A stretch of 64,000 nucleotides of DNA from Acidobacteriota bacterium (lineage in GTDB: Bacteria > Acidobacteriota > Terriglobia > Acidiferrales > UBA7541): the NCBI GenBank assembly GCA_013289855.1, contig JABCZD010000001.1, forward strand, positions 445,027-509,026. Direction: 5' to 3'. Position numbers: made by a program. The number at the start of each line of letters is the position of its first letter. The stretch's first letter is position 1. Below are positions 6,001-9,000 of the stretch, piece after piece.

Positions 6001-9000
6001 GGATTCGAGTTCCTGAATGATTTGGCCGTTGCCGCGGACGGGGCCGTCAAGGCGCTGGAGATTGCAATTGACGACGAAAATCAAGTTGTCGAGTTTTTCG
6101 CGCGAAGCGAGAGTGATGGCGCCGAGGGATTCTGGCTCGTCGGTTTCGCCGTCGCCGAGGAAGGCCCAGACTTTGGCGTCGGTGCGCGGCTTGAGGCCGC
6201 GATTTTCGAGATAACGATTGAAGCGCGCCTGATAGATGGCCATCAGCGGGCTGAGGCCCATCGAGACGGTGGGAAATTCCCAGAAGTCGGGCATCAGCCA
6301 CGGATGGGGATAGGAGCTGAGACCGCCGCCGGGTTTTAGTTCACGGCGAAAATTTTCGAGTTGCTGCGGGCTGAGGCGGCCTTCGAGAAACGCTCGAGCA
6401 TAGATGCCCGGAGAAGCGTGTCCCTGGAAGTAGACGGTGTCGCCTTCAAACTCCGGCGTGCGTGCGCGAAAAAAATGATTGAAGCCTACTTCGTAGAGCG
6501 TTGCTGCAGAAGCGTACGTGGAAATGTGGCCGCCGATGTTGTGTTCCACGCGATTGGCGCGGACCACCATGGCCAGGGCGTTCCAGCGGATGAGGCTCTT
6601 GATGCGGCGCTCGAGTTCCTGATCGCCGGGGAAAAGCGGTTCGAGGCGGGCCGGAATAGTGTTGGCGTACGGGGTATTTGCGGTGAACGGAAGATCGATT
6701 CCGGCGACGCTAGCGTGGGCGCGCAGACGTTCGAGAATCTCCGCGGCGACCTCTGGGCCGCTGGATTCGAGGACCGAGTCGAGGGACTCCAGCCACTCTT
6801 GAATCTGGACGTCGTCCATTCCCTGCTGTGTGTATGTTTCGTTTTCCATTAGCGTGCTGGTCCTTCTCCGGTGGCTAGGCGCTAGCGCGGTGCGCGCGTC
6901 GCGAAAATTTTATGGACGCTATAAGCTAAATAGAATACACCGTCGCGCGCATCCGTGCACGCATCTCTTGCGTGATCTAAATTGATGTTGGCCGGTCTTG
7001 AGCGCCATGCAGGATGCGGACGATGTGCACAATCTCGGGATCGACTGTGTAGACCACGATGTAAGGCAATGACGGGATCACAAACTCACGTGTTCCTGGC
7101 TCTTTTCCTGATCGACCGCGACTTGGGAATATCAGGAGCGCGGCAGGAGCTTCGTAAATCGTACGAATCAGTTTCTCGGCGTTTTCCGGCGAATTCTCAA
7201 ACAACTAATCTGCGATGTGACTGAGGTCTTGATACGCACTCTCCGTCCAACGCAGTCGAATCACATGCGTTGCCGTTTTTGAGCGAACAACTTCTCAAGG
7301 CGCGATCCTACTTCTTCGTGTTCCAGCGTCTTGCCGCGTTCAATTTGCGCCAGACCTTTTTTGACTTCCTCTATAAACCACGAGTCATAGTCGACCAGTC
7401 GCTCCAGCGCCTCGCGCACGAGAGACTGCGCGTCGCGACCTTGCTGTTCCGCTAGCCGATCCAATTTTGCTTGCAGTTCGGGTGGAATCTGAAGTTCCAT
7501 AAAGGCAGTTTACAGCACCCTGCCACCGTCTACTACCAGAACATGTCCGGTGATGAACTTAGCGTTTGCCAGAAAGATGACCGCGTCGGCGATGTCGGCG
7601 GGGGTGCCGGTGCGTTCTAGCGGAGCCAGCTTGATAAAGTCGCGCTGCCATTCGGGCGGGTCGCCGGGCATGGTGATGGTGCCGGGGGCGATGGCATTTA
7701 CGCGGATCTCGGGAGCTAGCTCTTTAGCCAACGCGCGGGTGAGCATGATTACGCCCGCTTTGGAGATGCTGTGCGGGATGAAGCCGGGCCAGCCCAGGAT
7801 TCCGCCCACATCGGCGAAATTTATGATCACGCCGCGCGAGGATTTCAGTAGCGGAGCGGCGGCTTGGGCGCAAAAGCATGGGGCTTTTAGATTGGAGTCC
7901 AGCGCGCGGTTCCATTGCGCTTCGGTGGTTTGCGCGAAGGGAGTCGCGAAGAAGTTGGCGGCGCTGTTGATGAGGATGTCCAAGCGTCCGAAATATTGCG
8001 CGGCTTGCGCGAAAAGATTTTTGATTTCAGCGAGTTGGGCAAGGTCGGCGGACACGGCCAGCGCGCGGCGGCCAAGTTTTTCGACTTCAGACACCACTTC
8101 GCGCGCTTCCCTTTCCGACGAACGGTAATGAATTACCAGGTCGCAGCCCTCCGCGGCCAATCGCAGCGCCACCGCGCGGCCCAGGCGCTTGCCAGCGCCG
8201 GTGACCAGAGCTACGCGAGGATTCGGCAATTCGGACATGTGGGGAAAAGTATCACAGGACGTCGTCAACGCAAGACGCTAAGCGCAATACGGGTAGTGGG
8301 TCAATCTGGATCCTCCTCGTAATTCAACACGCCGGACGCTAGGAAACAAAAAATCCCGAGGAAGATAATGCAAAGCCACCATGGACTCCATGGGATCGGA
8401 AATAACACCACCAAGAGCCACCACGCCCATTTCGGTCGCTTACGTCTCCCAATCTTTTCGGATTCCATTCTGTTCACTTCTCTATGCGTACATTCAATAC
8501 CGGAGAAATGCAAGCTGTCCCACCAGCGCAAGACGCCAAGGCTGGGCGTCCAAGCAAGAGTTGCCAAGGACTGTTGTGCAGGGTAAATTTGCGGTCTACG
8601 AAAGATTTAGCTTGGTCGTTGCGTATCGCTTTGTGCGGCCGCCGCGCCGCAAGACATCCGGCCAATTGCTTTTCAGGGAGTCCACGATGGCACAAGGAAT
8701 CTCGATAACGTCGGCTCATACGCGAGCCATTGCCGCGGCGGACACCGCGGCGGTGCCTTGGTACGTGTGGACCTCGGCGCTGGCGGTGACGTCGACCGTT
8801 GTGGGCTTGTACTGGGACATTTCCTGGCACATGTCCATCGGCAGAGACACTTTTTGGACCCCCGCGCACTTGGGCATTCATTTCGGCGCGATCGTGGCTG
8901 GCATCTCCAGCACGTTGCTGATTCTGGCCACAACTTTCGGGAAGGAAGCGGCGGCCAAACGCGCGACGTCGGTGCGGGTGTGGGGCTTTTACGGGCCGCT

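Follow-up and report, generated by a model that had tools for sequence, protein, structure and literature searches.

A chromosomal ParD-ParE islet, probably in early decay, in an uncultured acidobacterium

Chromosomal toxin-antitoxin (TA) modules are known to decay through deletions or nonsense mutations (PMC7167474, PMC2654758). The decaying ccdO157 module of E. coli (Mine et al. 2009, cited through both of these sources) and the hok-sok copies of E. coli K-12 resemble the locus described here in two respects: the module is a lone islet in an intergenic junction that varies between relatives, and it is inactivated by point or nonsense mutation while a remnant persists. These precedents differ from the present case in that they concern CcdAB or hok-sok rather than ParDE, and here the host belongs to the Acidobacteriota and the evidence comes from metagenome data.

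For ParDE itself, solved comparators include 6X0A and 5CEG (Mesorhizobium), 8C24 (M. tuberculosis ParDE1), 5CW7 (E. coli PaaA2-ParE2), 7R5A (V. cholerae ParDE2) and 3KXE (Caulobacter). The alpha-hairpin of ParE is needed for activity, and its alpha1-alpha2 helices form the gyrase-interaction site of V. cholerae ParE2 (preprint, bioRxiv 10.1101/2025.07.24.666505). Gyrase poisoning is a putative activity for the ParE clade considered here. The chromosomal ParD-ParE pair of P. aeruginosa (6XRW) resembles this locus in that both partners match its two chains (E 1.5e-4 for the toxin chain; E 2.5e-5 for 6XRW_B, the ribbon-helix-helix (RHH) antitoxin chain of the solved complex), and in that the antitoxin gene comes first, with overlapping stop and start codons. 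However, sequence identity to the P. aeruginosa pair is only about 27%, and here the toxin frame is interrupted at codon 20 and a promoter-like site is truncated.

The pair belongs to an uncultured soil acidobacterium of a Terriglobia lineage. It lies within a 64,000-nucleotide stretch of DNA, called the window below. An initial annotation had described an intact RHH antitoxin ORF whose stop codon overlaps, in GTGA, the start of a ParE-like frame, and a TAG that interrupts this frame after 19 codons before it continues in the same register. Each of these elements is present, on the minus strand, and the locus is laid out as follows.

7510..8268, minus strand: SDR gene (short-chain dehydrogenase; Pfam adh_short), the left border of the variable junction
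7507..7512, minus strand: TAAACT, relic of a -10 hexamer, 6 nt 5' of the antitoxin ATG
7500..7261, minus strand: antitoxin ORF, intact, 79 aa, from ATG at 7500 to TGA at 7263..7261
7500..7261, minus strand: antitoxin regions, with a probable ribbon-helix-helix in the N-terminal part and the presumed toxin-binding region in the C-terminal part
7264..7208, minus strand: toxin codons 1-19, with GTG start at 7264..7262, encoding beta1 and the first 12 residues of alpha1
7207..7205, minus strand: toxin codon 20, the in-frame TAG, with the changed base at window position 7205
7204..6977, minus strand: toxin codons 21-95, the 75 codons after the internal TAG, with the natural TAG stop at 6979..6977
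6944..6976, minus strand: 3' flank of the module, which moves together with the toxin gene and is similar in the window, L006 and L005
4165..6849, minus strand: aceE (pyruvate dehydrogenase E1, 894 aa), which borders the variable junction on the right

The antitoxin gene lies directly upstream of the toxin gene and is translationally coupled to it, as in type II TA modules: stop and start overlap in ATGTGA (7266..7261), and the same overlap occurs in two syntenic orthologous loci, L005 and L006. The toxin frame reads VIRLRWTESAYQDLSHIAD up to the TAG at 7207..7205, resumes as LFENSPEN...ILHGAQDRPTSI and ends at the TAG at 6979..6977. The JGI annotation places here a 75-aa 'ParE1/3/4' gene that starts at TTG 7204 (P0002). 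On the other side of the toxin gene, the 3' flank is similar in L005 despite the other downstream genes there. The conserved region upstream of aceE starts at about 6943; from ACGGTGTATTCT on, the sequence is common to the window and to L014, a locus with other cargo at the junction.

Membership of the toxin in the ParE/RelE superfamily is apparent from profile matches, and the match becomes full-length only once the interrupting codon is set aside. With tyrosine restored at codon 20, the repaired frame matches the Pfam profile PF05016 (ParE_toxin) over positions 1-88 of 89 with 69.4 bits, above the gathering score of 23 bits. The 75-aa ORF alone matches positions 21-88 with 49.3 bits. Codons 1-19 contribute profile positions 1-20 and about 20 bits, and because the match reaches positions 1-88 after restoration of the tyrosine, they are not a chance ORF. 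The NCBIfam profile TIGR02385 (RelE_StbE) also matches the toxin, with 35 bits, and a search of reference-genome contigs returned relatives at 34-60% identity.

The length of the homologs bears on whether the short C-terminal ORF could be the normal form of the gene, an outcome that the initial annotation had allowed for. With five exceptions, the 120 homologs listed are 89-103 aa long; the exceptions are this allele (75 aa) and four others of 61, 83, 83 and 87 aa. The syntenic orthologs encode toxins of 95 and 97 aa. The 75-aa form is thus not the usual one. Since the window ORF is interrupted by TAG at codon 20 whereas most homologs have 89-103 aa, the window copy, in which the uninterrupted ParE-domain ORF of about 90-100 aa is missing, is best regarded as a pseudogene of a ParE gene and not as a functional member of the family.

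Structural analysis used the syntenic ortholog P0001 (L005), 82% identical to the window toxin, and its results are carried to the window allele by homology. The AF2 model of P0001 (pLDDT 91.7) has strands at residues 3-6, 58-62, 68-75 and 78-86 and helices at 8-24 and 26-45. This corresponds to beta1, a hairpin of long alpha1 (17 residues) and alpha2 (20 residues), and a three-stranded sheet, without a C-terminal helix; long alpha1 and alpha2 and the lack of a C-terminal helix are the features that distinguish ParE from RelE (bioRxiv 10.1101/2025.07.24.666505). In a Foldseek search of the PDB, the top 23 matches to the model are all ParE toxins, and the model superimposes on 6XRW_A with a TM-score of 0.83 and an rmsd of 1.3 Å. 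The RelE, YoeB and YafQ mRNA-interferases share the PF05016 family and the superfamily fold, but their fold match is weaker (TM 0.5-0.67 for RelE-type structures versus 0.76-0.85 for ParE), and they differ from the ortholog model in its long alpha1 and alpha2 and its lack of a C-terminal helix. By homology to this model, the window toxin would belong to the ParE subfamily rather than to RelE, which sharpens the earlier 'ParE-like' assignment. In the model, about one helical turn separates Tyr20 from the tip of the hairpin that follows it.

This tyrosine is the predominant residue of its column. Among 70 homologs, position 20 is Tyr in 52, His in 7, Trp in 6, Arg in 3 and Phe in 2, and it is Tyr also in the solved ParE structures 5CW7 and 6XRW. 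Comparison with orthologous loci, a check proposed in the initial annotation, identifies the ancestral codon. L005 (P0001), which shares the SDR gene with the window, and L006 (P0003), which shares aceE and DUF1287 with it, each encode a 79-aa antitoxin and an intact toxin 76-82% identical to that of the window, and where the window reads GAT TAG, both carry GAT TAC. Because both syntenic orthologs with intact toxins read TAC, the window TAG represents one C→G transversion. The stop codon accordingly stands in place of a conserved tyrosine, a single nucleotide away, as had been proposed.

A single-base difference from the ortholog codon is also what a sequencing or assembly error would leave, in which case the true codon would be TAC or TAT and the toxin intact. 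The identical TAG is nevertheless found in four further independent JGI metagenome assemblies, L001-L004, from four different samples. Together with the window these fall into three haplotypes separated by SNPs, and in the adjacent SDR gene their divergence from the window reaches about 4.5%. Since four further independent assemblies carry it, the TAG is not an assembly error. A protein search among about 15 billion proteins found no intact allele more than 82% identical, and the null allele is the only one sampled in the lineage. A pattern scan of a metagenome-contig collection for the flanks of the codon, with any third base allowed, gave no match; that collection evidently does not contain this lineage. 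To our knowledge, a substitution is not the usual error type of any sequencing platform. The sequence comparison leaves this explanation, which the initial annotation had also raised, exceedingly improbable and effectively refuted.

The same codon might be read as sense if TAG were recoded in this organism, through pyrrolysine or a dedicated suppressor tRNA, a proposal for which there is nothing besides the in-frame TAG itself. Recoding is unlikely because 12 of the 35 large ORFs in the window terminate with TAG, among them aceE and the toxin gene. Furthermore, aceE, at 894 aa, matches its relatives in length, and the toxin stops where its 95-aa ortholog does. The window encodes just two tRNAs, for Val and Asp, and no suppressor tRNA; Rfam and tRNA scans gave nothing of relevance close to the locus. 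At codon 20, the orthologs use a standard Tyr codon. Window TAG usage, window tRNAs and the TAC of the orthologs likewise speak against programmed stop-codon recoding, and the probability of a recoded TAG is negligible.

In the reading that we favour, with a probability of about 0.85, this is a chromosomal type II ParD(RHH)-ParE islet in the variable SDR/aceE junction that has entered early decay. The TAC-to-TAG transversion at codon 20 would end translation after 19 residues, comprising beta1 and part of alpha1. The ParE fold, including the alpha1-alpha2 hairpin, would be unable to form after this truncation, and the remaining 75 codons would constitute a pseudogene remnant. The earlier proposal, that a nonsense mutation inactivated the toxin while the antitoxin ORF was kept, fits all of the evidence, with toxicity presumably lost.

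A different outcome would be an active or attenuated toxin, produced either by amber readthrough or by termination at TAG and reinitiation at TTG, the latter giving a 75-aa fragment that the 19-residue peptide may complement. TAG and TTG adjoin, so termination-reinitiation could yield such a fragment. None of the five assemblies shows damage in the downstream ORF, the antitoxin ORF is kept with all its invariant residues, and a second, unrelated ParE from a Polaromonas MAG (L012) likewise carries a TAG in helix alpha1, after which its frame continues intact. However, judged by the secondary structure of the P0001 model, the 75-aa fragment is without beta1 and three-quarters of alpha1, amounting to half of the hairpin that V. 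cholerae ParE2 needs (bioRxiv 10.1101/2025.07.24.666505). The 12 nt preceding TTG 7204 show no purine-rich Shine-Dalgarno sequence, and the TTG codon is lineage-specific, with GTA and CTA in the orthologs. In L002, a 2-nt TA insertion at window position 7231, within toxin codons 1-19 and seen on one contig only, shifts the frame, such that ribosomes would pass both TAG and TTG in another frame; because this frameshift bypasses both, even members of the same lineage do not all keep the TAG-TTG arrangement. In E. coli, moreover, a T directly after TAG makes for a strong termination context. The Polaromonas parallel is unsurprising, because in a GC-rich genome nonsense mutations of TAC and GAG codons are expected to give TAG. 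An active or attenuated toxin is therefore very unlikely. That the amber codon is tolerated or useful, with ParE made in small amounts, whether truncated, split or full-length, and a pair that persists as an attenuated TA module, has only a slight probability. If true, the Polaromonas amber would hint at early amber codons as a recurrent means of tuning ParE dosage.

Under the favoured reading of early decay, the nonsense codon appears not to be the sole lesion. Promoter-like sites lie 6 nt before the antitoxin start in L005 (TTGACA-17-TAAACT) and L006 (TTGACA-17-TAGACT), each the only such site in about 1 kb. Aligned to these orthologs, the window retains only the -10-like TAAACT (7512..7507); the -35 box and 17-nt spacer are gone, and the SDR gene now uses the TAA of the relic as its stop. 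A consensus scan of window positions 6700-8500 found no promoter-like site, with a consensus that may not suit Acidobacteriota. Scan and alignment thus agree that a promoter of the module's own, expected of a TA module, is missing, its promoter-like site apparently truncated by loss of the -35 box and spacer. The orthologs therefore differ from the window in having both TAC at codon 20 and a complete TTGACA-17-TA(A/G)ACT site. Loss of the -35 box and spacer would represent a second lesion. The pair is now probably transcribed from the SDR gene, and the antitoxin, which has no Shine-Dalgarno sequence before it, would probably be expressible only by read-through transcription from that gene.

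The antitoxin belongs to a family of 79-aa proteins, some of which NCBI labels as CopG-family RHH. Its Pfam matches fall below the gathering scores (Antitox_RHH, 21.3 versus 27.2 bits; RHH_1, 19.5 versus 20.5 bits), as does its match to an NCBIfam RelB-like profile (38 bits, cut-off 50). The ORF, found on 8 contigs, is intact and keeps all invariant family positions. It carries E57K, a charge reversal unique among 75 homologs.

Retention of this ORF could reflect neutral persistence or a function such as anti-addiction. In the latter case, the toxin null would have been positively selected and the antitoxin kept for its own function, against related ParE toxins brought in by plasmids, as in the anti-addiction model (PMC2654758), or as a transcription factor. 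This proposal is a variant of the favoured explanation rather than an exclusive alternative. Consistent with it, the antitoxin is intact and the null allele is the only one sampled in the lineage. Against it, the antitoxin lacks its own -35 box and Shine-Dalgarno sequence, it carries the E57K reversal, and the L002 antitoxin has A17E at a position more than 90% conserved. In addition, the window holds no paralogous ParE, nor a paralogous antitoxin, and the lineage is too young to offer a test of selection. We consider positive selection for the null rather unlikely. Along the window branch the antitoxin has 7 amino-acid replacements against 1, an excess that is marginal and comes from a star-like three-taxon comparison, and it was given no weight for that reason.

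The lesion is likely young, given only 3 amino-acid changes on the window branch versus 10 and 12 on the other two; the youth of the lesion would also explain why the 75-codon remnant is nearly unchanged. The dN/dS analysis gave no date for the lesion, as dS is above 1 (saturated) between the three orthologous lineages and the strain copies are near-identical across the TA pair and aceE. All five assemblies agree exactly over the 228 nt 3' of the TAG, which contain no additional lesion. Because the neighbouring aceE is equally invariant, this does not discriminate a young pseudogene from a constrained ORF. Divergence between strains amounts to 4.5-4.7% and is concentrated in the SDR gene. A possible sweep at the low-diversity TA region was considered and rejected, since the divergence is confined to the SDR gene and further upstream and aceE is as invariant as the pair. 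L002 appears to be further along in decay, combining the 2-nt frameshift in the toxin remnant with the A17E replacement in the antitoxin. Toxin frames are broken as well in 3 of 7 more distant relatives from reference genomes.

The setting of the pair is itself changeable. Among close relatives, with a PDH E1 at least 90% identical, the SDR/aceE junction is empty or holds a PIN+RHH pair or an unrelated 164-aa ORF; it is a site of variable cargo.

A young, decaying chromosomal ParDE remnant is a known phenomenon and involves no new mechanism; decay of a chromosomal TA module by nonsense mutation has already been described (PMC7167474). For annotation, the implication is that the JGI 75-aa 'toxin ParE1/3/4' gene would be the tail of a pseudogene and not a short toxin. 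For the family, the locus offers a clear natural view of TA decay at an early stage, from a phylum that has received little study, in which the ancestral state is known from syntenic orthologs and two independent lesions, a nonsense codon and a truncated promoter, are accompanied in one strain by additional changes. For the organism, it points to a chromosomal junction that swaps its cargo among close relatives, holding ParDE, a VapBC-like pair, an ORF of unknown function or nothing.

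The pair lies on the minus strand between an SDR gene and aceE (PDH E1). It has the ParDE-like arrangement of the initial annotation, with an intact putative RHH antitoxin ORF, a GTGA overlap and a TAG after 19 toxin codons:

7500 (ATG) to 7263..7261 (TGA), minus strand: antitoxin ORF of 79 aa, by ORF reading
7264..7262, minus strand: GTG start of the toxin, overlapping the antitoxin stop as ATGTGA
From 7264..7262, minus strand: toxin frame before the stop, VIRLRWTESAYQDLSHIAD
7207..7205, minus strand: in-frame TAG of the toxin
From that TAG to the TAG at 6979..6977, minus strand: 75 further codons of the toxin frame, LFENSPEN...VRILHGAQDRPTSI

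With the Tyr restored, the toxin frame matches Pfam PF05016 (ParE_toxin) at 69.4 bits over profile positions 1-88 of 89, bearing out the claim that the frame past the TAG is the rest of a ParE/RelE fold. The 75-aa ORF by itself scores 49.3 bits over positions 21-88; the stretch of 19 codons before the TAG is therefore homologous coding sequence rather than a chance ORF.

Sequence searches place the toxin with ParE proteins of solved structure (5CW7, E 5e-5; 6XRW_A; 6X0A) and match the antitoxin to the RHH chain 6XRW_B (E 2.5e-5); the two partners thus match the two chains of one P. aeruginosa ParDE complex. The fold was assessed on an AlphaFold model (pLDDT 91.7) of P0001, the intact 95-aa toxin of syntenic ortholog locus L005, 82% identical to the window toxin. 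The model comprises beta1 (residues 3-6), alpha1 (8-24), alpha2 (26-45) and three more strands, without a C-terminal helix. In a PDB search with it, the 23 best matches were ParE toxins without exception (TM 0.76-0.85), with RelE, YoeB and YafQ ranking after them (TM 0.5-0.67). ParE is told from RelE by long N-terminal helices and an absent C-terminal helix (bioRxiv 10.1101/2025.07.24.666505), and the predicted P0001 structure has both features. Codon 20 falls within alpha1 of this model. The primary product would be a 19-residue peptide, and a protein made from the 75-aa ORF would be missing beta1 and three-quarters of alpha1. Because these elements are absent from the truncated products, we infer that toxicity would be lost.

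We found 131 relatives in a search of ~5.8 billion protein clusters. Among the best 120 of these, all but five are 89-103 aa long, the outliers being the window allele (75 aa) and proteins of 61, 83, 83 and 87 aa. Judged by these lengths, the 75-aa C-terminal ORF is not the normal form of the gene, which refutes that alternative. At the column struck by the TAG, 70 aligned homologs carry Tyr in 52 cases (H in 7, W in 6, R in 3, F in 2), and the ParE structures 5CW7 and 6XRW have Tyr there too. The nearest full-length relatives among the matches listed, P0001 (82%) and the 97-aa P0003 (76%; locus L006), are encoded at loci syntenic with the window. L005 shares the upstream SDR gene, and L006 the downstream PDH E1 (aceE) and DUF1287 genes. 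In this comparison with orthologous loci, which the initial annotation had proposed, both toxins are intact and each follows a 79-aa antitoxin with the same GTGA overlap. The window's GAT TAG is GAT TAC in both, so the lesion is one C→G transversion at the third codon position; the stop replaces a conserved Tyr one nucleotide from TAC, as proposed.

A sequencing or assembly error could produce the same picture. An identical 75-aa product is recorded from 7 contigs, and the TAG recurs in L001-L004, copies of the locus from four different JGI metagenome samples in which the order SDR–antitoxin–toxin–aceE is unchanged. Divergence from the window in L001 and L002 is 4.5-4.7% across the SDR gene and about 4% farther upstream; SNPs in the antitoxin occur in L002 and L004, and L002 also shows a 2-nt insertion within the toxin remnant plus 4 differences in aceE. 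These loci are therefore not copies of one assembly. No intact toxin allele above 82% identity was present in the ~5.8 billion clusters searched. Recurrence of the TAG in four different samples refutes the error explanation, and assembly error is effectively ruled out at the level of assembled sequence. The exact antitoxin and aceE proteins have records in NCBI, ENA and JGI; the 75-aa product is recorded only in JGI/IMG, as 'toxin ParE1/3/4', a gene call that is a pseudogene tail.

Recoding of TAG is unsupported. Among the window's 35 large ORFs, 12 terminate in TAG, including aceE (894 aa, the same length as its relatives) and the toxin gene, whose natural TAG matches the end of the 95-aa ortholog. 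Within the window, tRNA and Rfam scans found no RNA genes beyond one tandem pair:

18266-18437, plus strand: tRNA-Val(TAC) and tRNA-Asp(GTC)

Low-level readthrough of the TAG, or reinitiation after it, would still yield a product. Both are disfavoured because structural elements would be missing, there is no Shine-Dalgarno sequence, the TTG adjacent to the TAG is specific to this lineage, and in L002 the 2-nt insertion puts the remnant in a frame running past TAG and TTG alike. Together, these points make either route unlikely.

Synonymous sites between the three orthologous lineages are saturated. Besides the stop, the window branch has 3 toxin amino-acid changes, versus 10 and 12 for the remaining branches, and the TA and aceE block is near-invariant among strains. 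This indicates that the stop lesion is young, and makes conservation of the downstream ORF uninformative on function. The window antitoxin keeps every invariant residue, with an E57K unique among 75 homologs; in L002 the antitoxin carries A17E, where >90% of the family have Ala. Seven reference-genome relatives were found among species-representative genomes, and in two of them, the Bryobacteraceae MAG loci L007 and L008, the toxin is frameshifted. These and a third broken frame, L012, are:

L007, about 5001-5270: toxin homolog in two reading frames, shift near codon 70
L008, about 5001-5275: toxin homolog in two reading frames, shift near codon 36
L012, 435-710: distant ParE homolog, 34% identity, Polaromonas MAG JAYURC010000130.1

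The upstream antitoxin homologs are in a single frame (residues 1-66 in L007, 1-75 in L008), and the split toxin frames may reflect either decay or MAG indel errors. L012 is interrupted by an in-frame TAG within helix alpha1 (TAC GTT TCA TAG CGA), three codons downstream of the column struck in the window. Its frame is otherwise intact, as is a 70-aa ORF upstream, in the antitoxin position with a TAATG overlap. Assembly errors may account for the broken frames in all three MAGs.

In L005 and L006, a consensus scan found a sole promoter-like site in about 1 kb, matching 10/12 consensus positions:

L005, 1167-1204: TTGACA-17 nt-TAAACT
L006, 848-885: TTGACA-17 nt-TAGACT

The upstream neighbours of the two loci differ. 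Only 6 nt separate the end of the site from the antitoxin start codon, so the antitoxin mRNA in this ParDE clade is suggested to be leaderless or nearly so. Here, the window and all strain copies keep only TAAACT (7512..7507) with its 6-nt spacing, having lost the −35 box and spacer. The final SDR sense codon abuts TAAACT directly, and the TAA of this hexamer is the present SDR stop codon. As the scan found no promoter-like site in window 6700-8500, the pair is probably expressed, if at all, via read-through from the SDR gene. Promoter truncation would be a second lesion of the module.

The SDR|aceE junction was compared among relatives with PDH E1 at least 90% identical, including L014-L016 and contigs of JGI sample 3300067032. 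The P0128 lineage has nothing in it, and the P0126 lineage a PIN+RHH (VapBC-like) pair in opposite orientation. In L014-L016 the junction contains an unrelated ORF of 164 aa without a Pfam match, and in the window lineage ParDE. The conserved region upstream of aceE begins at about 6943, and ~33 nt 3' of the toxin stop move with the module. The junction has the look of a small hotspot where TA-like cargo is integrated or replaced, and the ParDE pair there appears to behave as an accessory islet. In L005, a BrnT-family toxin gene (2315-2596) lies about 600 nt downstream of the intact ParDE, so several TA-type genes cluster there. Strain divergence is mosaic: 4.5-4.7% in the SDR gene (7510-8268) and about 4% upstream in L001/L002, with 0 differences between L001 and the window across the adjoining 3.3 kb of TA pair and aceE (4165-7500). 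The pattern points to a recombination breakpoint within or beside the SDR gene. Upstream of that gene, ~253 nt of the window (8275-8527) are replaced by ~19 nt in L001 and L002. Imperfect direct repeats of 17 nt (8266-8282, CAACGCAAGACGCTAAG; 8524-8540, CAGCGCAAGACGCCAAG) bracket the segment, which contains a possible hydrophobic ORF of 55 aa (MESEKIGRRKRPKWAWW...) with no Pfam match. Either an insertion or a deletion mediated by the repeats may explain the difference.

Elsewhere, the window holds a Tc/ABC-type toxin complex locus with two giant ORFs, perhaps of interest in an apparent acidobacterium:

23490-30920, plus strand: 2476-aa TcB-TcC-like protein (SpvB, TcdB middle N/C, FG-GAP, RHS-repeat)
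31350-32651: 433-aa ORF between the giant ORFs
32723-43807, plus strand: 3694-aa TcA-like protein (VRP1, ABC_toxin_N, neuraminidase-like, TcA_TcB_BD)

Taken together, TAC in the orthologs and TAG in L001-L004 support the original proposal of a toxin inactivated by one nonsense mutation with its antitoxin kept. Relatives carry the labels Candidatus Acidiferrum/Acidoferrum, Terriglobales and Terriglobia. Decay of chromosomal TA systems is exemplified by ccdO157 and hok-sok (PMC7167474, PMC2654758); the phenomenon is shared, and the module here is ParDE. The locus is thus a new instance of known TA decay, here affecting ParDE in an uncultured lineage of Terriglobia.
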